Shown here: in pieces, positions 44,094 to 62,240 of the stretch
How positions within the stretch are numbered: position 1 is the stretch's first letter
Layout of the letters: every line of letters begins with the position of its first letter
From: Minisyncoccota bacterium
GTDB taxonomy: Bacteria > Patescibacteriota > Minisyncoccia > Phycocordibacterales > UBA9973
Assembly: GCA_041657445.1 (NCBI GenBank)
Contig: JBBABV010000002.1
Span: 3,364-67,363 of the forward strand
Reading direction: 5' to 3'
DNA: 64,000 nucleotides
Notes under the pieces: generated by a model
Seen by the model: only the letters and a program-made list of their open reading frames with translations
Told to the model about the DNA's origin: nothing
The model's database searches: none
Program-made: the position numbers and the translations under genes

Positions 44094-44371
44094 CGCGGCT
44101 GATGGGTGCTGACCCCACGACCTCTCCCGTGCACTGATCCAATATTTTCATAAAGGCGTGGACTATATCTTCACCTTGCCAAAAAAGGTTTAGGTGCTCC
44201 TGTATCTAGTCTCTACGGTGCCCCCAGCCTTATGCTAGGGTTCCCACGGTATTAGCATATCTAATAAGACTTAGCCTTCACCGTTATCCAGGAGAGTTTC
44301 AATCCGCCATTTCGACGAAAAGCTGCAATTTGTGCTCACAGGGGAGTATTCTACCGTTGAACTACAGCCGC
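44094..44371 (-). tRNA. tRNA-Asp (anticodon GUC) interrupted in the anticodon loop by a 206-nt group I intron (~44132-44337). 5' exon 44338-44371, 3' exon 44094-44131.
   Basis: Exons are GCGGCUGUAGUUCAACGGUAGAAUACUCCCCUGU | CACGGGAGAGGUCGUGGGGUCAGCACCCAUCAGCCGCG, which closely matches bacterial tRNA-Asp. The 5' exon ends in U and the intron ends in G. Confidence 0.7.
44132..44337 (-). mobile_element. Group I intron (no ORF) in tRNA-Asp
   Basis: Minus-sense core elements in the correct order: P-like ...CCGUGGGAA (44241-44253), R-like UAGAGACUAGA (44205-44220), S AAGAUAUAGUCC (44158-44175). Confidence 0.65.
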
Positions 44372-45039
44372 TTTTTTATATACTCTTCAAATACATCTTT
44401 TTTCCTACCAAGGAACAACCCTGATGTACTTATCCTATTATACATAAAATAATATAATTTCAAAGCATTTATAGTACTATATTGTAGGCGACAAAACTCT
44501 CTCATTTTTGACCTATAAATACATCCTCCCTCTAATCCAAAAAAGTTAAGTTCAGTATGAAGTCTTTTAATAAATTCATACGAGCATGAAGTAAATGTCA
44601 ACTATAATACGAGGTGTGTTGTTTTTCTATTTTTATGAACCCTACCCATCCAGATATTTCCATCACCATCAAAATATCCCCTGACAAAATAAGAAAAATA
44701 TTCCTTAGGAATATTTGGAATAGCTAAGCTTTTTGTTTTCCTTTAAGTAAAACCAAGTTCCCTTAAATCACTACACATTTCTTTATTACCAATTTGTAAT
44801 CTATAGATAATACTTGATTTTGCATTCTTAGGTACCCTAATATTTATTTGATGCTCAGATTCAATCTCTTCTTTAATACTATATATTAAATCTTTATCAG
44901 TTGTCTGTATACACCAGTATTCTCCTCCTCTTTTGTTTACAGTTATGTATCCGTCTGCGGTAAAAAATCCTAGAATGTAGAACATTTCTCTCGTCCATTT
45001 TTTGAAAAAATCTTTGTTTATTTTCTTTTGTATTGGCAT
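44362..45039 (-). pseudogene. Decayed free-standing LAGLIDADG homing endonuclease gene, split into two ORFs (44743-45039 N-part, 44362-44601 C-part)
   Basis: The N-part has the canonical motif ILGFFTADGYITV. The C-part has a degenerate second motif LNFFGLEGGCI. The two are separated by a gap or frame break. Confidence 0.55.
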
Positions 45040-45069
45040 AAAATTTTATGCCCCTTGAAGAAGTCTGAA

Positions 45070-45143
45070 TTATTTACTGTGTCGACGCCAGGATTTGCAC
45101 CTGGGACCTGCACTTTATGAGTGTGCCGCTCTAACTACCTGAG
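45070..45143 (-). tRNA. tRNA with a CAU anticodon (elongator Met, or Ile2/lysidine type)
   Basis: Acceptor GUCGGCG/CGUCGAC, D-arm GCUC-AGGUAGUU-GAGC, anticodon loop CUCAUAA, T-arm CCAGG-UGCAAAU-CCUGG. Confidence 0.75.
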
Positions 45144-45229
45144 CTACGCCGACATACTAAAACCTTATTAAATATAACTTAAGAAAGTTTTGTTTGCAAA
45201 TAATGAAAAAAATGTATATACTGCAACAT

Positions 45230-45531
45230 AGCGGGGTGGAGAAGTGGTATCTCACAAGGCTCGACATAATGGGCCCCTCAATAGGAAACTATTGAGTTCG
45301 CATTTGCCAAATTCGGGGAAGTCCTCCCTTGTAATTTTTACAAGAAAGATAATCCCGAGCTAAACCTCACTAATCAGTGAGAAAATGTGTAGAGACTAGA
45401 TGGCAAACTCCTTAATTCTTTATTAAAGAAAAGGAGATGGGATAGTCCAGACCACAAATTCATAGTGATGTAGTGAAAACTATAGTGGTAAGCATAACCT
45501 TGAGACAGCCGTTCGAATCGGCTCCCCGCAA
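45230..45531 (+). tRNA. CAU-anticodon tRNA (Met; possibly the initiator, given A1·A72) interrupted after U33 by a 231-nt group I intron (45262-45492). 5' exon 45230-45261, 3' exon 45493-45531.
   Basis: Exons are AGCGGGGUGGAGAAGUGGUAUCUCACAAGGCU | CAUAACCUUGAGACAGCCGUUCGAAUCGGCUCCCCGCAA. Anticodon stem CAAGG/CCUUG, T-arm AGCCG-UUCGAAU-CGGCU, acceptor GCGGGG/CCCCGC. Confidence 0.65.
45262..45492 (+). mobile_element. Group I intron (no ORF) in the CAU tRNA
   Basis: Plus-sense P AAUUCGGGGAAGUCC, Q AAUCCCGAGC, R GUGUAGAGACUAGA, S GAUGGGAUAGUCCAG in canonical order. The intron ends in G. Confidence 0.65.
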
Positions 45532-45615
45532 CATTTTTTTAAAAAAGAAAGAACACTTTCTTCTTTTTTAGTTCGTTTTTGACACTTTTTCGTTACTTTT
45601 TTCAAAAAAAATTCC

Positions 45616-46269
45616 TTAAATAAAACCAAATTCTTGGAAGATTTGCTCATATAGAGTAATGATTCTTCCTGCTTCCCTTTTACTTAATGTAAAATTTGGA
45701 CCTTCATGAGCGATTTTGTTTCTTACTGTATGCGCTTCCCAAGCAATAGGAAGTTTTTTAAATTTCTTTGGATCTGCTGATTTTAGTTTTTCTCCTACTC
45801 CTTCTCCTTCAAAACCAAGTTGAGTTAAAAGTTCCAAAAGCATATTATCTGCTTCTAAAATAGACATCTTCCAATCAGAAGAATCAGGGGATAAAAAATG
45901 ATTCATTACGCTTACCCATTCTTGATTTCCAGATATTTTTTTTGCTTTCATTTCTTCTTTTTCTTTCTCAGCCATTTTATGAGCATATTCAACTATTTCA
46001 TGATGTAAATGCTCGTGTTCTTTCTTACGAATTTCAAACATTCTAACAGCACAATAAATCATTACCGCTATAAAAAACATTGAAACAAGAGACAAGACAC
46101 CTTTTATTATATTCCACACCTCGTGACTAAAAATTACAGGTAAAATATCTCCTGTCCATTCCATAAATTTAAATACTTCATATTCCCATTTTAAAAACAA
46201 AGAAGAACCTTCTGAAGCAGTGTTTCCAAAAACAGGATTTTGTTCTAGTGTTGGGGTAAGAATATCCAT
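45616..46269 (-). CDS. Hypothetical single-TM protein with a C-terminal HEPN-like Rx4H motif
   Basis: TM helix LSLVSMFFIAVMIYCAV, a charged coiled region, and a C-terminal AHTVRNKIAHEG. Confidence 0.4.
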   Translation of the reverse strand: MDILTPTLEQNPVFGNTASEGSSLFLKWEYEVFKFMEWTGDILPVIFSHEVWNIIKGVLSLVSMFFIAVMIYCAVRMFEIRKKEHEHLHHEIVEYAHKMAEKEKEEMKAKKISGNQEWVSVMNHFLSPDSSDWKMSILEADNMLLELLTQLGFEGEGVGEKLKSADPKKFKKLPIAWEAHTVRNKIAHEGPNFTLSKREAGRIITLYEQIFQEFGFI

Positions 46270-46270
46270 A

Positions 46271-47665
46271 CTATTTTAAATCTTTTTCTATACTAAATAA
46301 CATTTTATCGCTTTTTTGTCTTGTAGTAAACAGCGTCCCAAATGGTAACCCTTCACTTCCTATTCCAGAAGGAATAGAAATGGATGGAAGACCTGCTAGA
46401 TTTGCTGATACTGTAAATATATCTGATAAATACATCTCAACTGGAGAACTTTTTGCCCCAAACCTAAATGCTGGGGTGGGTGTAGTTGGTGTCATTACAA
46501 AATCTACATTTTTAAAGACATCATCATATTCCTTCATAATCGCTCTTCTCACCTTCCATGCCTTATTATAATATGCATCATAATATCCGTGAGACAATAC
46601 ATAAGTTCCAAGCATAATTCTTCTTCTCGTTTCGACACCAAATCCACATGAACGAGTCTTTTTATAAGTATCAAATACATTTTCTCCTTCAGTTCGAAGT
46701 CCATATCTTATTCCATCAAGTCTTGATAGGTTGGTAGAAACTTCAGCAGGCATTATGATGTAATATACAGCAAGAGAATATTTTGAATATGGTAATGAAA
46801 TATCTACAATTTTATATCCTTTCTTTTTTAATTTCTCTATTGATTCTTCAAAATTTTGTAAAACTTCTTTATCCACTCCTTCCTTTAAAAAATCTCTCGG
46901 CACCCCTATTACCTTTCTATTTTCATTTTCTAGATCATTTAAATCAATTGAGGTAGAATCCATCTCATCTCTACCTTTGATACAATCAAAAATAATCTCT
47001 GCATCTTCTGCTGTCTTAGCAAAAGGTCCAATTACATCTAAAGATGAAGACATTGCAGTAAGTCCACTTCTTGAGATTCCACCATATGTTGGTTTCATTC
47101 CTACTACTCCACAAAAACTGGCTGGTTGTCTAATAGAACCACCGGTATCTGAACCAAGTGCTCCAAGAGCCATACCTCCAGATACTGCTCCCGCTGAACC
47201 ACCTGATGAACCTCCTGGAACCCTAGAAGTATCAAGGGGGTTTTTTACTGCACCATATGCAGAATTCTCTGTAGATGAACCCATGGCAAATTCATCCATA
47301 TTTGTTCTTCCCACAAGCACGGCTCCACTTTCCTTAAGCCTTTTAATCACAAATGCATCATAACTCGCTCTGTAATTCTCCAACATTTTAGACCCTGAAC
47401 TATTTATCCTCCCCTCTATCAATATATTATCCTTTACCGCAATAGGAATTCCACAAAGTGTTCCACCTTTACCCTCTTTTAGCATTTCATCTGCTCTCTT
47501 TGCCTGCTCTAATGCATCTTCAAAAATTTCAAGAAATATATTTAATTTAGAATTCTTTTCCTTTATCAAATCAAGACAAGAAGAAACTAAATCAAAAGAA
47601 CTCATTTCGCCTTTCCTCATTTTTTCGCTTGCTTCTTTGATTGTTAATGTTTTTGTGTCTATCAT
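46271..47665 (-). CDS. gatA: Glutamyl-tRNA(Gln) amidotransferase subunit A
   Basis: Amidase signature (GGSSGGSAGAV, catalytic GSDTGGSIRQPA). Confidence 0.95.
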   Translation of the reverse strand: MIDTKTLTIKEASEKMRKGEMSSFDLVSSCLDLIKEKNSKLNIFLEIFEDALEQAKRADEMLKEGKGGTLCGIPIAVKDNILIEGRINSSGSKMLENYRASYDAFVIKRLKESGAVLVGRTNMDEFAMGSSTENSAYGAVKNPLDTSRVPGGSSGGSAGAVSGGMALGALGSDTGGSIRQPASFCGVVGMKPTYGGISRSGLTAMSSSLDVIGPFAKTAEDAEIIFDCIKGRDEMDSTSIDLNDLENENRKVIGVPRDFLKEGVDKEVLQNFEESIEKLKKKGYKIVDISLPYSKYSLAVYYIIMPAEVSTNLSRLDGIRYGLRTEGENVFDTYKKTRSCGFGVETRRRIMLGTYVLSHGYYDAYYNKAWKVRRAIMKEYDDVFKNVDFVMTPTTPTPAFRFGAKSSPVEMYLSDIFTVSANLAGLPSISIPSGIGSEGLPFGTLFTTRQKSDKMLFSIEKDLK

Positions 47666-47668
47666 TTT

Positions 47669-47941
47669 TTACAAAATCTTCTTCACTTTTATAAAGCCAT
47701 CTTGTGAATCAGGGAATTGTGAAAGTATTTGTTCTCTAGAAAAATCTTTTTTCTTTTCTTCATCCTCTCTCCAGATATTTTTGAGTGGATATTGTATTTC
47801 TTCCTCATCCACCTTCACTTCTTCTATTTGCTTTACATAGTCTAAAATACCATCCAAATCTTTTTGGAGGGATTCTTTTTCAATATCATTTAAATCAAGT
47901 TTTGCAAGTTCGGATAGATTTTCTATATCTTTTATTTCCAT
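47669..47941 (-). CDS. gatC: Glutamyl-tRNA(Gln) amidotransferase subunit C
   Basis: 90 aa GatC-like, directly upstream of gatA. Confidence 0.85.
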   Translation of the reverse strand: MEIKDIENLSELAKLDLNDIEKESLQKDLDGILDYVKQIEEVKVDEEEIQYPLKNIWREDEEKKKDFSREQILSQFPDSQDGFIKVKKIL

Positions 47942-47982
47942 TTGTAAAGTATATCAAAAAAGCATTAAATTAAAAAGAAAAA

Positions 47983-48762
47983 CTACCGAACACAACGAAC
48001 ATGCCTTGTAGCAAGTTTAGTATCACTACCCACATTTCCACCTCCCAAATACACACTGTAAGCATTAGCACTATTAGATGGAACAGCAGTACCTGACCAA
48101 TAGTGACTTGCAACGAAACCGGGAGGGTTCCTAGTAGAATCTGAAATACAAGATTCATTACCTAATCTTTCACACTCTGCATCTGCTAGAGTTTTGAGTT
48201 CTTCTATTGTAGGTAATCTTCCACCTGAGAGAGAACAAGCAGTAACTGCTTGAGTCCAAATCATCCTTATATCATCTCCTGTGACAAATTCACCTGTTGT
48301 ATCTACTCCTTTCTCATCCCATTTGACTACTCCTTGTTGTGAAGTTGAGTATGCCTCTATCGGTGCTGTATCACTTGGTATTAGGGCTGTTACTCCCCAT
48401 CTCTCTAGAACATCACTCCAAGTTGGGGAGTTTACAGAATGGCATCTGACTATTGCTCCGCTATTTGTTACAGAAGATATCATCTTTGTTATTGGACTAG
48501 TAGAAAGGCAGTTGGTATTTGGCCTCCATTGGTCTCCTCCTGTATTTAATCCTCCATAGTTGTTGTTATCAAGATATGATAGTTCCATTTGAGCACCCAT
48601 ATTCTTTAGATTTGACTTGATTGCTGCTTCTTTTCCTTTACTTCTTGCACTATTTAGAGATGCTATGACTATAGTGGCTAGTATTCCTATGATTGCTACT
48701 ACTACCAAGAGTTCTATGAGAGTGAAGGCTCTTTGATATTTTCTTTTTGTATTAAAAGACAT
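47983..48762 (-). CDS. Type IV pilin-like protein with a C-terminal DUF1566-like Cys-containing domain
   Basis: Prepilin N-terminus KYQRAFTLIELLVVVAIIGILATIV, then a C-terminal ~120-aa domain with conserved Cys (CSLSGGRLPTIEELKTLADAEC...HVRCV). Confidence 0.7.
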   Translation of the reverse strand: MSFNTKRKYQRAFTLIELLVVVAIIGILATIVIASLNSARSKGKEAAIKSNLKNMGAQMELSYLDNNNYGGLNTGGDQWRPNTNCLSTSPITKMISSVTNSGAIVRCHSVNSPTWSDVLERWGVTALIPSDTAPIEAYSTSQQGVVKWDEKGVDTTGEFVTGDDIRMIWTQAVTACSLSGGRLPTIEELKTLADAECERLGNESCISDSTRNPPGFVASHYWSGTAVPSNSANAYSVYLGGGNVGSDTKLATRHVRCVR

Positions 48763-48809
48763 TGGGTTTACTATACTATGTTAGAAATAATAAAAACATT
48801 TTCAAAAAG

Positions 48810-49712
48810 TTATTTACCTATCAATGCTTTAATTCTATCTTCAACAGGTGGATGTGTAGAAAAAAGCCCTGCAATCTTCTTACCAGCACTTTTACCAAAT
48901 GAACTTCCTTCTGGATTTGATATATATAGATGTGCCATTGCTTTACTTTTTCTCTTCATTGGAGTGCTATGCAAAGAAATTTTTTTTAAAGCATTTGCTA
49001 ACCCTTCTGGATATCTCGTCAAAAGTGCCCCTGATGCATCTGCTAAAAATTCTCTTTTTCGTGAAATTGCTAAATGGATAAGATTTGCAAAGATAGGTGA
49101 TAATATCATCAAAATAACCCCAACAAGCATTAAGATATTTCCTCCTCTATTATCACTACTACTATTTCTTCCCCCAAATATATGACTTCTTATAAACATA
49201 TCTGAAAGAATAGTCACAAAACCAACCAAGACTACTACTACAGTAGAAAGTAAAATATCTCTATTCCCTATATGTGACAACTCATGAGCTATCACTCCTT
49301 CAAGTTCATTCTTATCTAAAATACCAAGAAGTCCTGTAGTAACCGCTACCACTGAATGATTCTTATCCCTTCCTGTCGCAAAAGCATTTGGAGCAGGGTC
49401 ATCTATGACATATACTTTTGGCATCGGTAGCCCAGCGGTGATAGATAGGTTCTCTACAGAATTATATAAATCAAAATACTCTGTCCGCTTTGCTTCTTTT
49501 GCACCAGAGAGACCTATCACCACCCTATCAGAAAACCAATATGAAAAGATATTCATTAAAATACTAAAAATAATGAAAAAATACAGAATGTTTGGGTTGC
49601 TATAGTAATATGAGAAGAACCATCCAAGAACAATAACAATCACTAAAAAAACACTCATTAAAAGCCAAGTTTTAAGAACATTATTTGATTGATGTGTGTA
49701 TAGTGTCGCCAT
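48810..49712 (-). CDS. htpX: HtpX-like M48 zinc metalloprotease
   Basis: HExxH motif (HELSHIGNRD) and N-terminal TM helices. Confidence 0.85.
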   Translation of the reverse strand: MATLYTHQSNNVLKTWLLMSVFLVIVIVLGWFFSYYYSNPNILYFFIIFSILMNIFSYWFSDRVVIGLSGAKEAKRTEYFDLYNSVENLSITAGLPMPKVYVIDDPAPNAFATGRDKNHSVVAVTTGLLGILDKNELEGVIAHELSHIGNRDILLSTVVVVLVGFVTILSDMFIRSHIFGGRNSSSDNRGGNILMLVGVILMILSPIFANLIHLAISRKREFLADASGALLTRYPEGLANALKKISLHSTPMKRKSKAMAHLYISNPEGSSFGKSAGKKIAGLFSTHPPVEDRIKALIGK

Positions 49713-49971
49713 TTATGCCAAACTAGCTACTTTTATGAAGGTAAAAAATATCTTTCATGATTTTTAAATTTGATTCATTTAAATCTCTTATATACTTCTT
49801 CATATCTTCATTTGCCTCATCTCTGAGTTATTTTATATATTTTTGAATTTCTTTTTCTGCCATAGACAGATAATATCAAAGTAAAAACTAAAAACAAGTT
49901 ACCAAACATACTTTATATGTTCTAATATATTCCTTAAAATTAACCTTTATAGACAAGGAGTCTTCACCAAA

Positions 49972-50532
49972 TTAGAATTTCACTTCAACGGGCTTTTGAG
50001 CAATATCATCATCTGCTAGGTCAAAGAATTCTTTCTTTGCAAATTTAAAAATGTTTGCGATTATATTTGAAGGAAAACTCTCAATCTTCATATTCAAGTC
50101 TCTCACATTGGTATTATAAAACCTTCTTGCTGATTGAATCTTGTTCTCTGTATCAGAAAGTTCCCTTTGTAATTCTAAAAAGTTTGTATTTGCCTTTAAG
50201 TCTGGATATGCTTCAGCTAGAGCAAAGATTGATTTTAATGCACCTGTTAGCATATTTTCTGCTTCAGCATGAGCTTCTGTAGGACCACTTGCCCCCATAG
50301 CAAGAGATCGTGCTTTTGTAACATTTTCAAATGCACTTGATTCGTGAGTAGCATAACCCTTCACTGTATTTACTAAGTTTGGAATCAAGTCATATCTTCT
50401 CTTAAGCTGAACTTCAATATCAGCCCAAGCTTCTTCAGACCTGACTCTTAAAGAAATGAATTTATTGTAAACATAAGCAACATAAACCACTATCAAACCT
50501 AAAACTATATAAATATATGTCATTGTATTCAT
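49972..50532 (-). CDS. lemA: LemA-family protein
   Basis: N-terminal TM helix followed by the LemA helical-domain signature (AWADIEVQLKRRYDLIPNLV). Confidence 0.8.
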   Translation of the reverse strand: MNTMTYIYIVLGLIVVYVAYVYNKFISLRVRSEEAWADIEVQLKRRYDLIPNLVNTVKGYATHESSAFENVTKARSLAMGASGPTEAHAEAENMLTGALKSIFALAEAYPDLKANTNFLELQRELSDTENKIQSARRFYNTNVRDLNMKIESFPSNIIANIFKFAKKEFFDLADDDIAQKPVEVKF

Positions 50533-50552
50533 GAGGATATTATAGCATATTT

Positions 50553-51458
50553 TTAGTTATATTTCTTCTGTTTCTCTTCCCAGAGGACTAGAAGTGGTGA
50601 AGCAAGGAAGATTGATGAGTATGTGCCGAAAAACATTCCAATTGTGAGCATTAATGCAAAATACTTCGTACTTTCTGGACCAAAGAAAAATAGTGAAAGT
50701 AGAACCAAAATAGTAGTAAGTGAGGTAAAGAGTGATCTAAGGTAAGATTGTTTTAAACTCTCTCCTACTACAGAAGAAAAACTTAGTTTGTGTTTGTCTT
50801 CATTCTTTCTCAAATTCTCTCTTATCCTATCAAATATAACTATAGTATCAGAGACAGAAAGTCCGACGATAGTAAGCCCTGCTACCACAAAAAGTGAATC
50901 TGCTTCTACTCCGAAGAATCTTGATATTAAAGAAAATACTCCTGCTGTGATTATGATATCGTGAAGAAGTGCCCCTATAGCAATGATTCCGTATTTCCAA
51001 GAAGATACTGGTTTAGAGACCTTCCTGAAAGCAAAAGCAATGAATAGCACAATAGCAAAAGAAGAAAGAATAATAGCAAATAATGCTTTCCTTGAAAGTT
51101 CCTTACCAACAGAAGGACCAATAGAATTAAAATTTGATTCTGTAAGTTTGTATTCACCTTTCATTCCAAGAGTTTCCAGTAGAAGAGTATGCTCTTCCTC
51201 ATTGACATCTCTTGATTTTACTATATACCCAAGCTCACCTGTAGGTTGAAGGAGAATTGAGCCCATTCCAAGATTCTGAAGTTCTGTATTAAGAGATACT
51301 TGTTCGGGTCTTTCATTTTCATATACTACTTCTGTAATTGCTCCCCCTTTAAAATCAATTCCAATCTTTAAACCAAATACAGAAAGAGATATGATAGACA
51401 GAATCACTAATGCTATTGATATACCTATAAATATTTTTTTGTGATTTATTACAAACAT
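50553..51458 (-). CDS. secF: Protein translocase subunit SecF
   Basis: SecF topology, directly downstream of secD. Confidence 0.9.
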   Translation of the reverse strand: MFVINHKKIFIGISIALVILSIISLSVFGLKIGIDFKGGAITEVVYENERPEQVSLNTELQNLGMGSILLQPTGELGYIVKSRDVNEEEHTLLLETLGMKGEYKLTESNFNSIGPSVGKELSRKALFAIILSSFAIVLFIAFAFRKVSKPVSSWKYGIIAIGALLHDIIITAGVFSLISRFFGVEADSLFVVAGLTIVGLSVSDTIVIFDRIRENLRKNEDKHKLSFSSVVGESLKQSYLRSLFTSLTTILVLLSLFFFGPESTKYFALMLTIGMFFGTYSSIFLASPLLVLWEEKQKKYN

Positions 51459-51467
51459 ATTTTTATA

Positions 51468-52841: not shown

Positions 52842-52927
52842 ATTGATAATATAATACTACTTTTCTTAAAATTTGCAAAACCCAGTCTTTCTATGTTTTT
52901 TGTAAGAAAATATGCTATAATCAATCC

Positions 52928-53653: not shown

Positions 53654-53662
53654 ATCTTGTTT

Positions 53663-55625: not shown

Positions 55626-56763
55626 TCTTCATATCATCTTTATGTGCTGGTCTAGAATACTTTCTAAAACTCATCAAAATACCTAATGCCATAAATTCAG
55701 TTAAAAGATGAGATCCGCCATAACTCATAAAAGGAAGCGGAATACCCGTGACAGGCATAAGACCAAGATTCATTCCGATATTTACTAATATATGACTCAT
55801 TAAGAAAATAGCAATACCTATTCCGAATAAAATTTCAAAATTAGTAGCTCCAAGCAAAGCAGAAACTAATATTCTCCATATTACAAGACCATAAAGAATT
55901 AATAACAAAAAAGAACCAATAAATCCCCACTCTTCTGCAAAAGCAGCAAAAATAAAATCTGTTTGTGGCTCAGGTAAAAACTGCAATCTTGATTGAGTCC
56001 CAAAACCTAATCCTTTTCCTGTTAATTCTCCTGAACCAACTGCAATAGTGGATTGCAAAGCATTGTAACCTGAACCATGCATATCTGCTAGTGGATTGAT
56101 AAAACTTACAATTCTTGCTTTTTGATATGGGGCAAAAACAAAAGTCCAAAGAGAAAAGAAAATAATTGCTCCACCAGTAAAAACAAGAAGTAAATGAGTC
56201 TTTGAGATACCAGAAACAAGCACCATTCCAAGCCAGATAAGAGCAATAACCATAGCAGAACCAAAATCCGGCTGTAAAAGAATCAAGGTGAAAGGAATAA
56301 ATGCATAAAGTCCAGAAATAAAAATATGCTTTATGCTTTTTATCTCCACATGACGACGAGAAAAATACTTTGCAAGAATAAGTATCAATATGAGTTTCAT
56401 CAAATCCACCGGTTGAAAAGAAAATCCTGCAAAAGAAAACCAACTTTGAGCTCCTTTGACCGTGCTACCAAAAACAAAAAGTAATATAAGAAGTGTAGAT
56501 ATAAATAAAAAAAGACCAACAAGAACCCATGTTTTTTTTAAAAAACGAAAATCTATAAATGAAAAAGAAAAAAACACAATCAATGATAAAAATGCCCAAA
56601 TTATCTGTTTGTCAAAAAAATTACCCACATTTTCAGAAATAGAAAAAGACTTCATGGTAACAAGTCCAGCAATTACTATTGGAAGAATAAAGAAGACAAG
56701 CAACCAGTCCACTCTCTTAATTGTTTGAGAAAAACGAGATAAATTTAAATTTAAATATTCCAT
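55606..56763 (-). CDS. SEDS-family peptidoglycan glycosyltransferase (FtsW/RodA)
   Basis: 10-TM protein with the conserved FtsW/RodA C-terminal region (LPFMSYGGSHLL). Confidence 0.85.
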   Translation of the reverse strand: MEYLNLNLSRFSQTIKRVDWLLVFFILPIVIAGLVTMKSFSISENVGNFFDKQIIWAFLSLIVFFSFSFIDFRFLKKTWVLVGLFLFISTLLILLFVFGSTVKGAQSWFSFAGFSFQPVDLMKLILILILAKYFSRRHVEIKSIKHIFISGLYAFIPFTLILLQPDFGSAMVIALIWLGMVLVSGISKTHLLLVFTGGAIIFFSLWTFVFAPYQKARIVSFINPLADMHGSGYNALQSTIAVGSGELTGKGLGFGTQSRLQFLPEPQTDFIFAAFAEEWGFIGSFLLLILYGLVIWRILVSALLGATNFEILFGIGIAIFLMSHILVNIGMNLGLMPVTGIPLPFMSYGGSHLLTEFMALGILMSFRKYSRPAHKDDMKNEFLGI

Positions 56764-56802
56764 TTTTAAAAATTGTTTTAAAAACTTTTCTATCCTACAA
56801 TT

Positions 56803-57687
56803 CTATTTTAATTTTGTAAGAAAAATATCATATATAGGAATAATTTCACTTGCAACTACTTTTTCATTAAAAGGCGAAGGCCAAGTAAAACTTATTTCTT
56901 TTGATTCTCCTCTATCCAACTGCTCAAGATATGTCCGAGAAGAGGTTATAGCATTCCCATCTTTATCATATAAAATAACAACAATATCTACTTCAGGAAT
57001 TATAAAAAGAGAATTATTCTTTATAACTGCAGATAAATAAGGATCTGTATTTTCATTTTTAAGTTCTAAATCTGAAACAAAAACTTTTACTTCATTCAAT
57101 TTTTCTTCTGGAGCCTTAACCCAAAAAGGTGTTTCTGTAAATTCAAAAGAAACATATACAGGTATAGAATTACCAAAATCAATTGCAGGTTCAAAAACAG
57201 CAAATTTTCCTGAAGCAGGGATGGTAGTTTTTCCTTCTCTTTTTCCTATGTATATATTATTTTCATCAGCAAAACGAAATCTGTAACTTATATTTCTTAT
57301 TGCACTTGTTGGATTATGATTTTCAAGATATGCTACTGCATTATATCTCCCCTTTACTACCTTAAAAGCTCTTGCCCAAAGTATAGAAACCTGGTCCACT
57401 TCATACAAACATTGGTTACTGCACGATCCACCACAATCTACTCCTGTCTCATCTCCATTTTGCTTTCCATCACTACAAGTAGGGATATTATCAATATGCG
57501 GAGCTACAATAAAAAAAACTATTACTCCTAAGGTAACAATAAGCACAATGATAAAAATTATTTGCCTTTTGAGTGCCCAAGTCATAAATGTATTGTAACA
57601 CAGTATGTATTTGCTTTCTAGGTGGCACAATAACTCACAAATATGCACCCTCGACAAATATTGAGGGTGCTTTTTATTTTTATTCAT
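56803..57687 (-). CDS. Hypothetical signal-anchored protein with a Cys-rich stretch. The start at 57585 (MTWALKRQ) is more likely than 57687.
   Basis: TM anchor IIFIIVLIVTLGVIVFFIV followed by CSDGKQNGDETGVDCGGSCSNQC. Confidence 0.5.
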   Translation of the reverse strand: MNKNKKHPQYLSRVHICELLCHLESKYILCYNTFMTWALKRQIIFIIVLIVTLGVIVFFIVAPHIDNIPTCSDGKQNGDETGVDCGGSCSNQCLYEVDQVSILWARAFKVVKGRYNAVAYLENHNPTSAIRNISYRFRFADENNIYIGKREGKTTIPASGKFAVFEPAIDFGNSIPVYVSFEFTETPFWVKAPEEKLNEVKVFVSDLELKNENTDPYLSAVIKNNSLFIIPEVDIVVILYDKDGNAITSSRTYLEQLDRGESKEISFTWPSPFNEKVVASEIIPIYDIFLTKLK

Positions 57688-57880
57688 ATCACCTATATTC
57701 TAATACAGGTGTTGCAATTGATTGTTGAACTAAGTATACAAAAATTTGACTTTTTTTTAAAAAGGTCTAGAATACAAAAAGACTTCACCGTCCCCCAATC
57801 AATTAAGCGCGCCCCCTCCCAAGGGGGCTTATACTCCAGAATCCTACCTTTTCTGGAGTTTTTTTATACCTAATAACACA

Positions 57881-57912
57881 AAAAACCCGAAAAATAATCG
57901 GGTTTTTTGTTA
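57881..57912 (-). terminator. Hairpin terminator downstream of 5S rRNA (symmetric, with U-runs on both strands)
   Basis: AAAAAACCCGA-aaaataa-UCGGGUUUUUU. Confidence 0.6.
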
Positions 57913-57923
57913 TATTAAATGCT

Positions 57924-58038
<115 letters not shown>

Positions 58039-58369
58039 AACATTCAATTTATTAATACAAATTTTTAATAAACATGTATAATATATGAATTTTTATGAAA
58101 ATATCTTAAATGTGTTTTTTATACATTATAAGTTTTGTGAATTATTATGATTTCCAAATTTCTTAACAGGAATCGAACAATTAGTACTTCTCAGCTCTAC
58201 ACATTACTGTGCTTACACTTAAAGCCTATCAACCTGATCATCTCTCAGGGTTCTAAACGATTCCTCATCTTGAAGATGGCTTCCCTCTTAGATGCTTTCA
58301 GAGGTTATCCATTCCCGACATAGCTACCGAGCAGTCCACTTGGCAGTAGAGCTCGTACACCAGAGGTCA

Positions 58370-58400
<31 letters not shown>

Positions 58401-58460
58401 ATCTTCTCAAGAATCAACGAGTGCAGTAGATAGGAGACCAACCTGTCTCACGCATGTTTT

Positions 58461-59694
58461 CACACATTACTGTATGCATTGGACTATACTTTCCCTATAA
58501 TACAGGGGTCGGTTTGTAGTCTCTACAAAGAACAAAAGTTCTTCTCGGTATTGTCCTCCACTTATAATGGATGGGATTTTACCGATAACCCCGACTTATT
58601 CTTTATTTTTAAATAAAGACCGCCGTGATTTGATTGGTTACTCTATCTTTTTAACAAACGAAAAAACTTCTTAATAACAGTATTTTATAATTTCTCTTAG
58701 GATTCAGATTGTGGAATAGTCGTTTATATTACTAAAAACAACTTCTCCACGGTCTGACATTTAATCCATTATTACTAATGGTACTGACTATACCTTTTCC
58801 AAAACTTTCCTGCCTTGGAACTGACGTGTTAGCAAGCATGTCGCTCGCTCTGTCTATTTACTAGACAAGTCGATACGGGGATTATCAATCTTATAAGTCA
58901 TTGATGGGGCGATAAATGGAGAAACTATTGAGAGAAAAAGATTGTAATATTCTTTTCCAATTGCAATTTTCCATTGATTTCTATCTTTTACTATTGTCGC
59001 AGATATATTATATTTCTTTTTTAGAAAATCAACAATTATTTCTTGATCTTCATAAGAAAACGAATGTGTACTTAAAGTCACATTACTGTGATTATTTGAA
59101 CCATCATCCATATACCATATCGCTAACATTCTATCAGAAAAAATAGGAAGTACTTCTTTTGGAAATATTTTCACATTATCTTTATAAAAGATTTTATGTA
59201 TAATTCCAAATCCTTCCAAACTTCTCGTATGAAAGTACCATGATATTTCTTTAAGATTTCTTTTTCTATTTGTCCATGAAATTTTTCTTGGACTAGAAGA
59301 AACAAAACTCTTTAATATTTCATACTTCCACCAGACATAATCTTTTTGTTTTTCGCCATGATGCACACGAAATCGAGCTGTTAAAACACCCCTAATTCCA
59401 TTTGACCTGCACTCAAGCCGTGCATCTCCTAACAACGACCCTATAATCACATCTAGCTGATGTGATGGAAATGTTGATTGTAATCTTCCCACGATATTAT
59501 CCATTATGTGTATTTTATCACACACAACCGGACTTCACCGTTATGAGTCAGTTTATTTTTTATCTCTTTTTTATTTTGACAAGCGAGGAGCGAGTGAAAA
59601 TAATAATTTTCACTTCGTCCGAGCGAAGTCAAACTATGGATTTTAATAAATCCATGTCCTCGTAGAAAGTCATTAGCTGGGCTCATGAATCCTT
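58461..59694 (-). mobile_element. Group I intron A in 23S, near the site equivalent to E. coli ~L2585-2593, carrying a LAGLIDADG gene
   Basis: 5' exon ends ...GAGCUGGGU. The 3' end has P-like, R GUAGAGACUACA, S AGUAUAGUCC, and a P9 CAUACA-GUAA-UGUGUG hairpin, then an omega G before AAAACAUGCGUGAGACAGG. Confidence 0.55.
58854..59525 (-). CDS. LAGLIDADG homing endonuclease, double-motif, intron-encoded
   Basis: Two motifs, VIIGSLLGDARLE and AIWYMDDGSNN. 223 aa. Confidence 0.8.
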   Translation of the reverse strand: MCDKIHIMDNIVGRLQSTFPSHQLDVIIGSLLGDARLECRSNGIRGVLTARFRVHHGEKQKDYVWWKYEILKSFVSSSPRKISWTNRKRNLKEISWYFHTRSLEGFGIIHKIFYKDNVKIFPKEVLPIFSDRMLAIWYMDDGSNNHSNVTLSTHSFSYEDQEIIVDFLKKKYNISATIVKDRNQWKIAIGKEYYNLFLSIVSPFIAPSMTYKIDNPRIDLSSK

Positions 59695-59774
59695 ACCCAG
59701 CTCGCGTACCTTTTTAATTGGCGAACAGCCAAACGCTTGGGAGCTTCTCCGCCCCCGCGCTAAGGTGAGCCGAC

Positions 59775-60301
59775 CACTTATTTACATGCAATGAAACCAT
59801 TGCAAAACCATTATTACTAATGGTGCAGACTATACCTTTATATTAGATTTGTTCTAAATATACCAGCGTCTTATAACAATGTTTATATTGTTATCTTCAT
59901 TTTATTCTGTAATTCTTACAGATACAAAAATCCAGTCGTTACGGGGTTATGAAAGTCCTATCTTATATCTCATAGATTTGATGATATAAGGACAAATTAG
60001 GTCAACAAGTTTTTGAGTCTCTTTTTTATTGCAATATATTCTATAACCTTTATCTCTATCTTTGTAAGACAACATAGATATGTTAAATTTATTCTTAACA
60101 ATAAAACAAAGTTTCTCAATCTCTTGTAGAGTAAAAGAATAAGCATTTTCTTATTCCAATATTTACTTTCTAAACTTCCCACGGTGTTGACCATATATAA
60201 CGCGAATTATATCATGGCTTTCTCCGTTATGAGCTGATTTAATACATAAATTTATGTATGAGAGAATTGTTCAGACTCTCTCTCCTCGACATTCGGTGTT
60301 T
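59775..60301 (-). mobile_element. Group I intron B in 23S at the L2500-equivalent site (between CUCGAU and GUCGGCUC), with a decayed ORF remnant at 59997-60194
   Basis: 5' exon ends GGCACCUCGAU. The intron ends ...S-like AAGGUAUAGUCUG plus a P9 CCAUUA-GUAA-UAAUGG, then G, then GUCGGCUC. Confidence 0.55.
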
Positions 60302-60555
60302 ATCGAGGTGCCGAACTCCGCCGTCGATATGAACTCTTAGGCGGAACTAGCCTGTTATCCCTAGAGTAGCTTTTATCCGTTAATCTTCCACCACATCTAA
60401 TGTGTATGGTCGGTTCACTATGTTCTGGTTTCCCACCTGCTTGGGATGTACCCCTCACAGTCAAGCCAGCTTGTGCCATTACACTATCGGCACGGTTTCC
60501 ATTCGCGCCTAGCTGACCTTTAAACCCCTCCTTTACTTTTTAGGCTCTTTGTTAA

Positions 60556-60922
60556 CTGCATATCGCTATGCAGGACGGACTATACATTCATCCTTTTTAG
60601 GATGGCTGGTTTGTAGTCTCTACGGGTGATCTATTTAATATAAGTAACAAATATTACTATTAAAAGAAAGAAAATTTTGATTATCTCTAATTTCTTCTAA
60701 CAACTTAATAATTTTTTCATTATTATCCGTGCACTATATTATAGTCTTTCCCTCGGTGTTGTCCACTTGGGATTTCACCGATATTCCCAACTTTTTTCAA
60801 TCACGATTGATCGTGAAAGCCCCCCTTGTATTTATTTTTTCTGCAGGTGGATTATACCTGCCTGAGGCTGCAAAGTTCGAGGATTCGAATAAAATAAAAT
60901 CTTATTTCAAGTCCTCGAGGGT
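60556..60922 (-). mobile_element. Group I intron D in 23S (no ORF), near the E. coli ~2200-equivalent region
   Basis: 5' exon ...UUUUACUGGGGCUGU. The intron carries P-like (60763-60777), R GUAGAGACUACAAACC, S AUGUAUAGUCCG, and a P9 CUGCAUA-GCGA-UAUGCAG, then UUAACAAAGAGCC. Confidence 0.5.
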
Positions 60923-61228
60923 ACAGCCCCAGTAAAACTATCCACCAGATACTGTCTCAATGCGTTTTTTCCGCACAGGTTAGAACATGCCTTCAAAAAG
61001 AATGGTATTTCACTGTTGAGTAGATTTCAGCCGAAACCGAAAACATCAGACCTCTCCCATCTATTCTACGCAGTTTAAAAACATGCTCAATATCAAGTTA
61101 TAGTAAAGCTTCTAGGGTCTTTTCGTCTAACTGCACTTAACCGGCATCTTCACCGGTATTGTATTTTCACCGAGCTGGTCCCCGAGACAGTTCTCCGGTC
61201 ATTACACCATTCGTGCGCGTCGGAACTT

Positions 61229-61971
61229 CATGTATTTACATTACTTAATCTCCAAAAATGGAGAGCAAAACCCACTATTACTAGTGGCACAGACTATATC
61301 TTCATCTCAATGCATTTTGAATATCTTTCTTTGAATACTTTCTTTTTCCACTTGGATTCATTTGAAAAACTAAATCTAAAATCTTTTTTAATCCGTTCTT
61401 ATTCTTGTGCATATTTTTTTGCATAAGAAAACAAACTTCTTTAAAACGATTAAAGTCATTCTGTTTCTCTGAAATCAAAGGGTGTTTTTCAAAATGAGGA
61501 ATTATTTTACTGATTAGGTTTTCCAAACTTCTCACTTCATATTTAAGTGTTTTGTCTGAATAATCTCTTCTGATAAAACCACATTGAAAAATGTTTTGCA
61601 TCAGGAAAAGAATTTGTGCTCTATCTTCATTTTGACTGACAGAAAAACTTGGTTTGGTTTCCCAGCCCAGAGTTAGTTTGTCTCGCTTTGAAAAAGAAAC
61701 ACTAAAGCATCCTTCTCCATCCACATATCCTGAAATATATTCTTGTATATTATGCTTTTTTATATTGAGAGCCGGCATGTTATAGATTATAACAATAATC
61801 TATCTAGGTCGCCACTATACAGAGGCGACCTAAGTCGTTACGGGGTCACTATAATTTGATTATAGGACTTCCCACGGTATTGTCCTTAATTACTTTCGCA
61901 CTTTCATTAAGGATTCCACCGTTATAAGCCGGATTTAATCCGAAAATCACTCTTCGGATGGGCAGTTCTCT
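61229..61971 (-). mobile_element. Group I intron C in 23S at the L1917-1931-equivalent region (GUCGGGU|AAGUUCCGAC), carrying a LAGLIDADG gene
   Basis: Exon junction reconstitutes GUCGGGUAAGUUCCGAC. P-like CAAUACCGUGGGAAGUC, Q-like CCCCGUAACGAC, S AAGAUAUAGUCUG plus a P9 CCACUA-GUAA-UAGUGG. Confidence 0.55.
61302..61778 (-). CDS. LAGLIDADG homing endonuclease, single-motif, intron-encoded
   Basis: Motif ISGYVDGEGCFSVSF. 158 aa. Confidence 0.8.
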   Translation of the reverse strand: MPALNIKKHNIQEYISGYVDGEGCFSVSFSKRDKLTLGWETKPSFSVSQNEDRAQILFLMQNIFQCGFIRRDYSDKTLKYEVRSLENLISKIIPHFEKHPLISEKQNDFNRFKEVCFLMQKNMHKNKNGLKKILDLVFQMNPSGKRKYSKKDIQNALR

Positions 61972-61991
61972 ACCCGACAAGGTATTTCGCT

Positions 61992-62205
61992 CTAGTCACC
62001 TGTAAAAACTAGGACTCTATCTTCATCCTCTTTCGTAAGAAAGTAGGATGCATGGCGTTGGTCTCTTGTTAACCATGATTGGATTCTCATACATTACTGC
62101 ATAAGTAGGTAGCGTTTTTGTGTAATTTTTCTGTTTACTTTTCCTACAACAGTCCCAATCCTTTTTGACTCATTATTACAACACATATTGTAAAATATGT
62201 CAAAA
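61992..62205 (-). mobile_element. Small (214-nt) group I intron E in 23S between GGUCCUAAGGU and AGCGAAAUACC (L1900-equivalent region)
   Basis: Splits the otherwise contiguous CUAAGGUAGCGAAAU. R-like CAAGAGACCAAC and S-like AAGAUAGAGUCCUAG. The intron ends in G. Confidence 0.5.

Positions 62206-62240
<35 letters not shown>

Follow-up and report, generated by a model that had tools for sequence, protein, structure and literature searches.

Eight putative group I introns within 18 kb of a CPR genome probably represent several old, site-specific lineages

Introduction

Judged from its sequence, a stretch of 18 kb in the genome of an ultra-small bacterium of CPR/Paceibacteria type holds eight putative self-splicing group I introns: six interrupt the 23S rRNA gene and two lie in tRNA genes. 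This raises the question whether the introns are recent copies of one element or separate lineages that meet in one locus. The initial annotation of the window (the whole 64,000-nucleotide stretch of DNA analysed) had proposed the former, a single closely related family that recently spread to at least seven sites. In 2015, Brown and co-workers reportedly described both insertion sequences and group I introns from the rRNA genes of CPR bacteria. Insertions are present in 82% of CPR 23S genes, many being group-I-like with LAGLIDADG genes at positions 1917, 1931, 1952 and 2593 (Tsurumaki et al. 2024, PMC11270868). CPR 23S genes with several introns have been published before; less expected here are the clade of the tRNA-Asp intron, which is confined to GUN-anticodon tRNAs, and a free-standing LAGLIDADG pseudogene adjoining tRNA-Asp. 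Introns of tRNA genes are absent from the cited paper (0 occurrences of 'tRNA').

Results

Intron set and recurring blocks

The 23S rRNA gene (58170..64000, minus strand) was delimited by an Rfam LSU match and by blastn and MAFFT comparison with E. coli 23S. It runs from about E. coli position 498 to the 3′ end, its 5′ part lying outside the window, and is followed 3′ by the 5S rRNA gene (58034 to 57927, minus strand, Rfam match). The tRNA-Asp gene is on the minus strand as well, and tRNA-Met on the plus strand. Six insertions follow E. coli positions 1931, 1951, 2262, 2504, 2584 and 2593; after their removal the gene is colinear with E. coli 23S at all six. Two mini-exons result, one of 20 nt (61972..61991, minus strand; AGCGAAAUACCUUGUCGGGU, aligning at E. 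coli 1932-1951) and one of 9 nt (58749..58757, minus strand; UCAGACCGU versus UUAGAACGU in E. coli 2585-2593). All eight introns are preceded by U and terminate in G, and in 7/8 a P1 guide pairing with U·G at the splice site could be read directly from the sequence. The group I assignment of the L1931 insertion, counted among the eight, is tentative.

The interval marked in the initial annotation, 44094-62205, indeed encloses several group I introns; the blocks quoted there are present, and both tRNA genes and the 23S gene are interrupted by introns with common core blocks. Its count of five 23S introns and seven sites was superseded by the 23S mapping, which gives six and a total of eight. 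The P-, R- and S-strings it quoted are real but were written antisense, because the minus strand encodes 23S, 5S and tRNA-Asp; RNA sense was used for the P9 hairpins alone. Read as RNA, the P-like string is CAAUACCGUGGGA, comprising the Q-like 3′ strand of P4 and the start of P6, the R block is GUAGAGACUACA and the S block is GRUAUAGUC. Five matches to TCCCACGGTRTTG were found at ≤2 mismatches, versus 0.63 expected, and none of 100 shuffles reached five. Two exact and two one-mismatch copies of TGTAGTCTCTAC all fall within introns. GACTATAYC taken alone was not enriched (25 observed, 20 expected), and no shared flanks beyond the recurring blocks were found among the window introns.

Introns of the tRNA genes

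The tRNA-Asp(GUC) gene (44094..44371, minus strand) is split into exon 1 (44371 to 44338) and exon 2 (44131 to 44094), which ARAGORN folds into a cloverleaf when spliced. The junction, CUGU|CAC, is the same as in the intronless tRNA-Asp of contigs L181 and L184; the T-loop, GUCAGCA, is aberrant, unlike that of 17 homologues. The 206-nt intron (44132..44337, minus strand) lies in the anticodon loop at U35|C36. Its P1 is CUGU/GCAG, which puts U·G at the splice site; P2-P9 are present, L9 is a GAAA loop, and the intron terminates in G. It scored 42.7 bits against Rfam RF00028 (E 3.5e-9, under the gathering score) and 188.7 bits against R1, a covariance model built from tRNA-Asp-type introns. Its best relatives are introns of the same gene in other contigs (119 bits). 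On sequence grounds it belongs to an abundant 'GUN-tRNA' clade, clade A, found only in tRNAs with GUN anticodons (Asn, Asp, Tyr) and inserted at U35|N36. An alignment of 36 clade-A sequences contains compensatory changes in 27/41 pairs, supporting P1-P9, with P1 itself unchanged throughout. The host genes of these introns were listed nowhere in the literature searched.

An initiator-type tRNA-Met(CAU) gene (45230..45533, plus strand) was recognized by ARAGORN with its intron option; it folds as a cloverleaf with the A1×A72 mismatch and A11:U24, and the spliced form matches intronless homologues in contigs L179, L181, L183 and L184. Its 231-nt intron (45262..45492, plus strand) is inserted in the anticodon loop at U33|C34, with P1 GGCU/GGCC and a terminal G, and is the sole Rfam RF00028 match above the gathering score (63.4 bits). 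Other tMet introns are its nearest relatives (96 bits), followed by those of tRNA-Arg(UCU) (54) and tRNA-Leu(UAA) (44). Found here in a CPR bacterium, it falls into clade B, the classical (IC3-like) type of tRNA intron; the IC3-like label, as with IA below, was taken from architecture rather than from subgroup-specific reference models. The two tRNA introns of the window align with each other at 10-14 bits only, and in syntenic contigs these tRNA genes are either split in the same way or lack the intron.

[quoted passage not shown] Same-site homologues occur in at least seven CPR loci. Near its 5′ end there is no canonical guide sequence, and in the candidate P1 the splice-site pair is A-U; no Rfam match was obtained, and R1 gave 9.2 bits (E 0.09). 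The L1951 intron (61971 to 61229, minus strand; 743 nt), after U1951, has P1 GGGU/GCCC and an endonuclease ORF in the P8 loop. It is of group IA type, with P7.1/P7.2 between P7 and P3′; the two extra hairpins were seen in 22 sequences, and P3, P4 and P6 show covariation. Its same-site homologues number about 50 loci, with up to 420 bits over the whole intron, and R1 gave 42.2+10.6 bits.

The L2262 intron (60917 to 60545, minus strand; 373 nt, no ORF) follows U2262 and has P1 CCCU/GGGG, a long P1-loop insertion and an L9 GCGA loop, without P7.1/P7.2; same-site relatives are found in loci L016 and L025, and R1 gave 41.9 bits. The introns after U2504 (60301 to 59775, minus strand; 527 nt; P1 CCUCGAU/GUCGAGG) and U2584 (59694 to 58758, minus strand; 937 nt; P1 AGCUGGGU/GCCCAGCU) were classed by eye as IA-type; the P7.1/P7.2 hairpins, likewise read by eye in these two, are present only in L1951, L2504 and L2584. 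In L2584 the ORF overlaps P4′-P7, and same-site homologues in L033 and L038 gave 63-72 bits for the core and 283 bits for the whole. The L2593 intron (58748 to 58453, minus strand; 296 nt, no ORF), after U2593, has P1 ACCGU/GCGGU, a compact P2-P9 core, an L9 GUAA loop and a 5′ extension of about 100 nt; its same-site homologues scored 66, 55 and 38 bits, and the R1 match (71.3 bits) spans the full model.

A further insertion of 354 nt (62977..63330, minus strand) lies in helix 45, opposite E. coli 1163-1210. Its predicted fold (-127 kcal/mol) is closed by a stem of about 21 bp. No homologue was found in the other loci compared, and R1 gave no match; the insertion resembles an intervening sequence or an expansion segment and is not a group I intron.

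Endonuclease genes

The L1951 ORF (61302..61778, minus strand) encodes a predicted single-domain LAGLIDADG_1 homing endonuclease of 158 aa (Pfam E 7.6e-26) with I-SmaMI, I-OnuI and I-PanMI as PDB relatives; nearly all of its 56 homologous loci are within L1951 introns. The L2584 ORF (58854..59525, minus strand) belongs to LAGLIDADG_2, the I-SceI family (Pfam E 1.8e-42; E 4e-17 to I-SceI in PDB), and a probable ATG at 59504 would give 216 aa. Its product is 63% identical to the same-site orthologue in L033 and 25-36% to paralogues at L2262, L2449, L2500, L2504 and L2511. The two intact intron endonucleases are thus of different families, I-OnuI-like and I-SceI-like. In L2504, what is left of a decayed I-SceI-family endonuclease (about 59950-60150; by eye it seems to sit in the P6 loop) shares 32% identity with the C-terminus of the L2584 enzyme. 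Homing endonuclease homologues occur in MAGs labelled Nomurabacteria or Paceibacterota, which supports a host of the Paceibacteria/Nomurabacteria type within the CPR.

A free-standing double-motif LAGLIDADG endonuclease pseudogene (44365..45039, minus strand; Pfam LAGLIDADG_3) has two in-frame stops, is open only for its first 98 codons (45039 to 44743), and ends in a TAG within the first 10 nt of tRNA-Asp. Its family has 2328 homologues, including an intact 221-aa one in L103 (67% identical, tblastn). In other contigs the gene adjoins intron-less tRNA-Asp too, so the intron is not needed for protection of the site.

Relationships among the introns

Even with lax filters, Rfam RF00028 detected none of the six 23S introns, and their assignment therefore rests on R1, motifs and hand-drawn helices. 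The tRNA-intron model R1 detected 7/8 window introns at E ≤ 0.003; four exceeded the phage T4 baseline, L2593 (71 bits), tMet (69), L1951 (42) and L2262 (42) versus 13-23 for the two ORF-split phage IA2 introns td and nrdB.

With ORFs removed, the best core relatives of the 23S introns were same-site CPR introns: L1951 168, L2504 136 (in L006), L2584 72, L2593 66, L1931 46 and L2262 41 bits. These matches are 2-6 times better than those to any other window intron, although the comparison set was gathered via the L1951 endonuclease, so that other sites are unevenly sampled, with 2-3 comparators each for L2504 and L2584. The best cross-site pairs within the window reached 9-30 bits (L2504, 21-30), and most pairs gave no match. 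The intron complement differs among related genomes.

Discussion

The eight introns very probably represent several old site-specific lineages common to other CPR bacteria and not a single recently spread family. What the introns have in common is for the most part the core found in group I introns generally, together with L9 GNRA tetraloops. The R1 scores above the T4 baseline imply that some lineages share more than the bare universal core, which fits old rather than recent common ancestry.

Recent copying of one family to at least seven tRNA and 23S sites in this genome, for instance by reverse splicing or ectopic homing, is highly improbable and largely refuted already. Core blocks and GNRA-capped P9 hairpins do recur in all introns, a stretch of about 35 nt at P7-P9 is common to L2504 and L2584 (z = 12.5 in local alignment), and a model from tRNA introns detects the 23S introns. 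Against this, cross-site scores in the window are 0-30 bits versus 41-168 at the same site elsewhere, architectures and endonuclease families differ, paralogous endonucleases are about 30% identical, and syntenic relatives carry the same introns at the same sites with host-like nucleotide identity of 65-79%. A deeper connection is a possibility that we rate as rather unlikely: L2593, L2262 and the anticodon-loop introns may descend from one ancestor whose targets changed between rRNA and tRNA long ago, within CPR or earlier, in which case 'one family' would hold only on a deep timescale. R1 gives L2593-type introns 50-84 bits, with window L2593 close to tMet and far above T4 td and nrdB, and full-length alignment has the same P2-P9 layout; however, with a baseline of only two phage IA2 introns, 50-80 bits may be normal for any compact group I intron, and there is no common flank or guide sequence.

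A little less probable still is that some insertions do not self-splice, L1931 in particular and the helix-45 insert certainly, being IVS or degenerate relics that are excised by RNase (fragmented rRNA) or retained. The atypical guide pairing of L1931 and its poor Rfam and R1 results would agree with this, as would the long hairpin of the helix-45 insert at a classical IVS site and the fact that group I accounts for under half of the CPR 23S insertions in the classification of PMC11270868. The position of L1931 directly after U1931, its terminal G, the S-like GAAGAUAGAGUCC and R-like AAGAGACC blocks and the P8 hairpin argue otherwise; its homologues keep these blocks, and retention in the functionally critical H69-H71 region would probably be harmful.

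Free-standing homing endonucleases beside conserved genes have phage parallels. Phage T4 SegB is a GIY-YIG enzyme encoded near or within a tRNA cluster, and at cyanophage psbA a free-standing endonuclease and an ORF-less intron engage in 'collaborative homing'. The pseudogene resembles these in lying tight against a conserved tRNA gene that often has an ORF-less intron, and differs in being LAGLIDADG rather than GIY-YIG, bacterial and chromosomal and in also occurring beside intron-less tRNA-Asp. As in the CPR rRNA insertions of the same host clade (PMC11270868), several group-I-like insertions are concentrated around the peptidyl-transferase centre, in the 3′ part of 23S, and IVS-like inserts at known RNase III sites are likewise described there; this locus differs by its six introns, its 20-nt and 9-nt mini-exons and the failure of Rfam to match any of the six introns. 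Compared by site and not by sequence, bacterial 23S introns are cited at the same classical positions in Coxiella burnetii (L1917 and L1951, flanking a 34-bp exon; Raghavan et al. 2007, as cited in PMC11270868) and in Thermotoga and Simkania (L1931). Coxiella shares the arrangement of two introns around a tiny exon, these genes have one or two introns versus six here, and their endonuclease contents differ.

Under the preferred reading of old site-specific lineages, the rRNA operon and nearby tRNA cluster would hold at least five: IA-type introns with P7.1/P7.2 (L1951, L2504, L2584), compact introns (L2262, L2593), the atypical L1931 element, the 'GUN-tRNA' intron of tRNA-Asp and the classical IC3-like intron of initiator tRNA-Met. 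Each would be bound to its own insertion site, at which it recurs in many other CPR genomes. At the RNA level, each intron would fold as a group I core whose guide pairs with the 5′ exon to place U·G at the splice site, and two transesterifications ending at the terminal G would yield intact 23S rRNA and tRNAs. At the DNA level, the LAGLIDADG endonucleases encoded in L1951 and L2584 may maintain and spread these two introns by homing into alleles that lack them; the endonuclease of L2504 has decayed. The ORF-less introns may last through vertical inheritance, or through recombination or co-conversion across their highly conserved exons. That the introns cluster within 18 kb would then reflect where conserved, homing-prone targets lie, the 23S peptidyl-transferase region and the anticodon loops, rather than local copying.

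The split 23S rRNA gene

A bacterial-type 23S rRNA gene was identified by Rfam on the minus strand, running from the end of the window (64000) down to about 58180, with a 5S rRNA gene downstream (58034 to 57927, minus strand). The minus strand of 57900-64000 was mapped onto the E. coli 23S rRNA gene (L001:1004-3907), giving colinear blocks interrupted by large insertions. Using a MAFFT map and a spliced reconstruction, the junctions were placed exactly 3′ of E. coli U1931, U1951, U2262, U2504, U2584, and U2593, after which the insertions are named: L1931 (62205 to 61992, 214 nt), L1951 (61971 to 61229, 743 nt), L2262 (60917 to 60545, 373 nt), L2504 (60301 to 59775, 527 nt), L2584 (59694 to 58758, 937 nt), and L2593 (58748 to 58453, 296 nt), all on the minus strand. 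The initial annotation had counted five 23S introns; the number is raised here to six, one having been overlooked or fused with its neighbor.

Two mini-exons on the minus strand, of 20 nt between L1931 and L1951 (61991 to 61972) and of 9 nt between L2584 and L2593 (58757 to 58749), each have an intron on either side. Joining such mini-exons correctly would need the neighboring predicted ribozymes to splice in order or independently. A further insertion of 354 nt (62977-63330, minus strand), with a closing stem of about 21 bp and a fold of −127 kcal/mol, was located in helix 45 at about E. coli position 1170, the classical RNase III IVS position. This insertion gave no group I signal and had no homologue among the other loci compared.

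Two split tRNA genes

Both tRNA introns interrupt the anticodon loop. The tRNA-Asp(GUC) gene (44371 to 44094, minus strand) is split between U35 and C36 by an intron at 44337 to 44132 (tAsp), and the initiator-type tRNA-Met(CAU) gene (45230-45533, plus strand) between U33 and C34 by an intron at 45262-45492 (tMet). Following splicing in silico, both tRNAs fold as cloverleaves. With default settings ARAGORN found neither gene, and with the intron option tMet alone. Syntenic loci in which the two genes lack introns confirmed the predicted junctions, CU|CAUAA and CUGU|CAC.

The window's initiator tRNA and its homologues in contigs L179, L181, and L184 carry an A1xA72 mismatch, not the usual bacterial C1xA72, which is found in L183. 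The window copy also has an A11:U24 pair, and the anticodon stem of its clade contains just two G:C pairs. In its second exon (44094-44131, minus strand), the window's tRNA-Asp has the T-loop GUCAGCA (U54 to G, A58 to G); its D-arm is short. The T-loop is the canonical UUCRAVY in each of 17 homologous split tRNA-Asp genes (GGUUCRAVYCC when flanking stem bases are included). This tRNA-Asp gene may be decaying together with the adjoining endonuclease pseudogene described below.

Group I identity and architecture

That group I introns occupy both tRNA and 23S genes had been spotted correctly in the initial annotation. All eight introns are preceded by U and end in G, and for seven of them a guide pairing with the 5′ exon, with U.G at the splice site, was predicted by reading the sequence. 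These P1 helices (5′ exon/guide) are CUGU/GCAG for tAsp, GGCU/GGCC for tMet, GGGU/GCCC for L1951, CCCU/GGGG for L2262, CCUCGAU/GUCGAGG for L2504, AGCUGGGU/GCCCAGCU for L2584, and ACCGU/GCGGU for L2593. The exception is L1931, with a candidate AGGU/ACCU that places A-U at the splice site.

The single group I match from Rfam across the interval lay on the plus strand at 45252-45468. Against RF00028 (gathering score 50 bits), tMet was the sole intron above the gathering score (63.4 bits), and tAsp fell under the cut-off at 42.7 bits (E 3.5e-9). The six 23S introns gave no RF00028 match at gathering or lax thresholds in 21-kb and 3.9-kb slices (E <= 10 on the 3.9-kb slice). The single Rfam group I model is known for low sensitivity across subgroups. 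Because RF00028 gave no match to the 23S introns, a covariance model, R1, was built from 36 relatives of the tAsp intron. With filters off, R1 scored tAsp at 188.7 bits, L2593 at 71.3, tMet at 69.3, L1951 at 42.2 + 10.6, L2262 at 41.9, L2584 at 21.3 + 11.2, L2504 at 13.5 + 8.4, and L1931 at 9.2 bits (E 0.09), against baselines of 22.6 (+7.4) bits for phage T4 td and 13.5 + 12.2 bits for phage T4 nrdB, both bona fide but unrelated introns.

The RNAalifold consensus of the 36 sequences, which form an intron clade including tAsp (clade A), contained P1, P2, P3, P4, P5, P6, P8, and P9; compensatory changes were found in 27 of its 41 pairs. Covariation was likewise seen in P3, P4, P5, and P6 of the L1951 lineage. 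Support of this kind for the P3-P9 core covers clade A and the L1951 lineage. L2593, L2262, and L1951 were aligned by R1 across the whole core; P7, a pseudoknot, was visible solely as invariant complementary blocks.

Subgroup names are used here in an architectural sense, not as the outcome of subgroup-specific models. In the L1951 lineage, P3 encloses P4-P6, P7, and P7.1/P7.2, the latter being two hairpins between ACGACU and GCCGG. In subgroup IA, such extra hairpins separate the P7 5′ strand from the P3 3′ strand. Both extra hairpins covary among 22 sequences, with whole-stem compensatory replacement in L006 and L010. The same layout was recognized by eye in L2504 and L2584, and on the presence of P7.1/P7.2 all three introns were assigned to IA, the latter two by eye. 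The finer label IA3 is our assumption, carried over from the classification of the Coxiella L1951 intron. In tAsp, tMet, L2262, and L2593, P7 runs directly into P3′ without P7.1/P7.2. The IC3 subgroup was defined by a compact core without P5abc or P7.1/7.2, GNRA-capped P2 and P9, insertion in the anticodon loop, and kinship to Leu(UAA)/fMet/Ile introns. tMet fits this tRNA-intron architecture, and its kinship to Leu(UAA) and Arg introns amounts to 44-54 bits. The compact layout also holds for tAsp, which has GAAA in L9 and scores only 10-23 bits to Met and Leu introns.

L1931 is tentatively regarded as a group I intron. It retains an S-like block, an R-like block, and a P8 hairpin, and has same-site homologues in other genomes, in some of which the terminal G is absent. 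Near the 5′ end of L1931 no canonical guide sequence was found. Folding by hand and RNAalifold on seven homologues both failed to give a convincing structure. The short L1931 elements of the window (61992-62205, minus strand), L006, L017, L021, L029, L039, and L047 are atypical. They share a conserved GCURCYU about 90 nt inside, which could pair with exon AGGU, the R facing the splice-site U, and an exon-like (U)AAGG always lies in the loop of the last hairpin.

Kinship among the introns

From sequence blocks recurring in the tRNA and 23S introns, it had been proposed that one closely related family spread recently to at least seven sites. The quoted blocks are present in the sequence: the 13-mer is strongly enriched (5 matches vs 0.63 expected) and the four best copies of the 12-mer are all intronic, the 9-mer by itself being without enrichment. 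Seven introns, all but tMet, are transcribed from the minus strand, which makes the originally quoted P, R, and S strings antisense. In RNA sense they read CAAUACCGUGGGA, corresponding to the 3′ strand of P4 and the start of P6, GUAGAGACUACA for R, and GRUAUAGUC for S. They are mainly standard group I core elements. A GNRA-capped P9 is common in group I introns.

The proposal of a single, recently spread family is not supported: for each of the eight introns, same-site introns elsewhere score higher than any pairing within the window. Outside comparators were obtained by scanning species-representative genomes with the L1951 endonuclease, resulting in 56 loci, nearly all in CPR MAGs (Nomurabacteria, Paceibacterota, Kaiserbacteria, etc.), with protein identity up to 78%. 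Their 23S introns occupy positions 1917, 1923, 1931, 1951, 2262, 2449, 2500, 2504, 2511, 2584, 2593, and 2657 in varying combinations. With ORFs removed, and with comparator sets seeded from one endonuclease and one DNA pattern, the best same-site core elsewhere scored 168 bits for L1951 (other window introns 26 and 17), 136 for L2504 (30 and 21), 72 for L2584 (13 and 9), 66 for L2593, 46 for L1931, and 41 for L2262, the last three having no match to other window introns. Local alignments within the window gave two weak clusters, {L1951, L2504, L2584} and {L2262, L2593}, the remainder being near noise.

For the tRNA introns, metagenome contigs were scanned for the R...S pattern common to both, yielding at least 120 contigs, so that counts from this set are samples, not censuses. 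Among the contigs listed, many are syntenic with the window at 65-79% nucleotide identity and carry the same split tRNAs, in the shared order gatA, a gene of about 217 aa, tRNA-fMet, tRNA-Met, LAGLIDADG gene, tRNA-Asp, tRNA-Thr, tRNA-Thr. All-against-all scoring among the matches listed resolved two tRNA-intron clades: tAsp scored 119 bits to other tAsp introns, 58-98 to introns in neighboring host classes, and 14 to tMet; tMet reached 96 bits with other tMet introns, 54 with a tRNA-Arg(UCU) intron, 44 with tRNA-Leu(UAA) introns, and 10 with tAsp introns. The tRNA introns are polymorphic for presence and absence among relatives. Taken together, the two-clade scores and the intron-less syntenic alleles indicate that tAsp and tMet are old residents belonging to different lineages.

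The endonucleases also speak against one family. LAGLIDADG domains were detected inside L1951 (Pfam E 7.6e-26) and L2584 (1.8e-42), and both ORFs are predicted to be intron-encoded LAGLIDADG homing endonucleases, of different families. By their PDB relatives, the L1951 enzyme is single-domain and I-OnuI/I-SmaMI-like, with 56 homologues nearly all within L1951 introns, and the L2584 enzyme belongs to the I-SceI family, of which L2504 holds a decayed remnant. Identity of the L2584 enzyme is 63% with the same-site orthologue in L033 and only 25-36% with paralogues at L2262, L2449, L2500, L2504, and L2511; enzymes of the I-SceI family have switched sites, but long ago.

A deep resemblance of L2593- and L2262-type introns to the tRNA introns persists: across CPR genomes, introns of these types score 50-84 bits with the tRNA-derived R1, above the T4 baseline, although that baseline is thin. 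As a reading of this resemblance, an old switch between tRNA and 23S targets is rather unlikely. Matches of about 24 bits between tAsp and L1951-type introns in nhmmer were rejected as a special tRNA-23S link, being within ordinary cross-site core similarity. The top R1 match in the Paceibacterota contig L003 (84 bits, opposite strand) was considered as a new host gene and rejected: it is an ORF-bearing L2262 intron within an inverted, incomplete piece of 23S (2700-3600, minus strand; E. coli about 2060-2262), which lies upstream of the main 23S copy and represents an assembly chimera or else a genuine duplication.

An intron clade in GUN tRNAs

The tRNA genes hosting tAsp-type introns were named Thr(UGU), Asp, Asn, Ser(UGA), Tyr, and Ala(UGC) by ARAGORN; among the matches listed, its intron mode gave 28 clade-A genes a wrong identity (Thr, Ser, or Ala). 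In A1, the alignment of clade-A introns from metagenome contigs (L059-L178), the 5′ junction has an invariant CUGU with U.G at the second U, and the 3′ junction reads ..GUG|N; P1 is invariably CUGU/GCAG with insertion at U35|N36, again among the matches listed. Based on the invariant U.G after CUGU, the ..GUG|N 3′ ends, and the tRNA profiles, the identities Thr(UGU), Ser(UGA), and Ala(UGC) were rejected. The discriminator base, 3:70 pair, and length of these genes are as in Asn, Tyr, and Asp. Re-solving by the group I rule gave 32 Asn(GUU), 18 Asp(GUC), and 6 Tyr(GUA) among the 122 metagenome matches listed. Within these matches, clade A is thus confined to tRNAs with GUN anticodons, at U35|N36 and with one four-base guide. 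In the literature consulted, the only group I tRNA hosts listed were Leu(UAA), fMet, Ile(CAU), and Arg(CCU) of cyanobacteria and proteobacteria, and no mention of CPR tRNA introns was found.

Upstream of split GUN tRNAs there are often free-standing endonuclease-like genes, which terminate at or within the tRNA 5′ end. In the window, a double-motif LAGLIDADG pseudogene with two in-frame stops (44365-45039, minus strand) lies directly upstream of tRNA-Asp. A 98-aa LAGLIDADG_3 ORF (45039 to 44743) is its open front, the frame running on to 44365, and its final TAG lies within the first 10 nt of tRNA-Asp. Intact homologues measure about 221-230 aa; their family has 2328 members, among them proteins named Paceibacterota or Yonathbacteria. 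A LAGLIDADG gene directly upstream of tRNA-Asp was also found in L103 (4025-4690) and among L179-L190, and at least 15 pattern-selected contigs have one directly upstream of a split tRNA-Asp.

Other split tRNAs likewise have upstream ORFs, whose ends lie no more than about 45 nt from the tRNA 5′ end. These fall into several families with weak or no Pfam matches: a helix-turn-helix family of about 205 aa at tRNA-Tyr (L082, L135, L141, L174, L101), a family of about 224 aa at tRNA-Asn (L086, L142, L067), and HNH-like ORFs of about 100 aa, also at tRNA-Asn (L120, L146, L175). In L187, L189, and L190, the LAGLIDADG ORF closes with 12 nt that copy the tRNA-Asp 5′ end (GCGGCTGTAGCT), with no tRNA directly after; in L189 the intron core is shifted about 90 nt downstream of its usual place. 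These loci hint that the LAGLIDADG gene has a tRNA 5′-end copy of its own.

Nine distinct homologue loci gathered without bias comprised five with a split tRNA-Asp (R1, 169-186 bits), three with an intron-less tRNA-Asp, and one with neither. Because three of the nine have an intron-less tRNA-Asp, the gene is linked to tRNA-Asp and not to the intron. The same loci weaken collaborative homing, by which the LAGLIDADG enzyme would cut intron-less tRNA-Asp where the intron inserts and the intron would protect its host. Co-conversion of the tRNA-Asp intron with the endonuclease gene is possible. One short guide would allow a single intron lineage to hop between GUN tRNA genes, and clade A may spread by co-conversion with the free-standing endonuclease-like genes at tRNA 5′ ends. 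We consider the chances about evenly balanced that clade A is an undescribed, abundant CPR clade that targets solely C32-U33-G34-U35 of GUN (queuosine-family) tRNAs, maybe co-converted with neighboring endonuclease-like genes.

Significance for CPR genomes

In CPR bacteria, 23S genes with several introns and with LAGLIDADG endonucleases at these sites have been described before (PMC11270868); an intron-rich 23S gene with such endonucleases is a published hallmark of the group, and the finding as first proposed is mostly ordinary for it. The cleanly mapped six-intron 23S gene, with mini-exons of 9 and 20 nt in the peptidyl-transferase region, is useful for testing rRNA assembly. The CPR tRNA introns, including the GUN-restricted clade, widen the known host range beyond the Leu, fMet, Ile, and Arg tRNAs of cyanobacteria and proteobacteria. 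If this reading of the clade is true, standard tRNA finders overlook or mis-name split genes, and CPR genomes would falsely appear to be without tRNA-Asp, Asn, Tyr, or fMet. Given the genes missed and mis-called by ARAGORN, tRNAs recorded as missing in CPR annotations may therefore be an annotation artefact.
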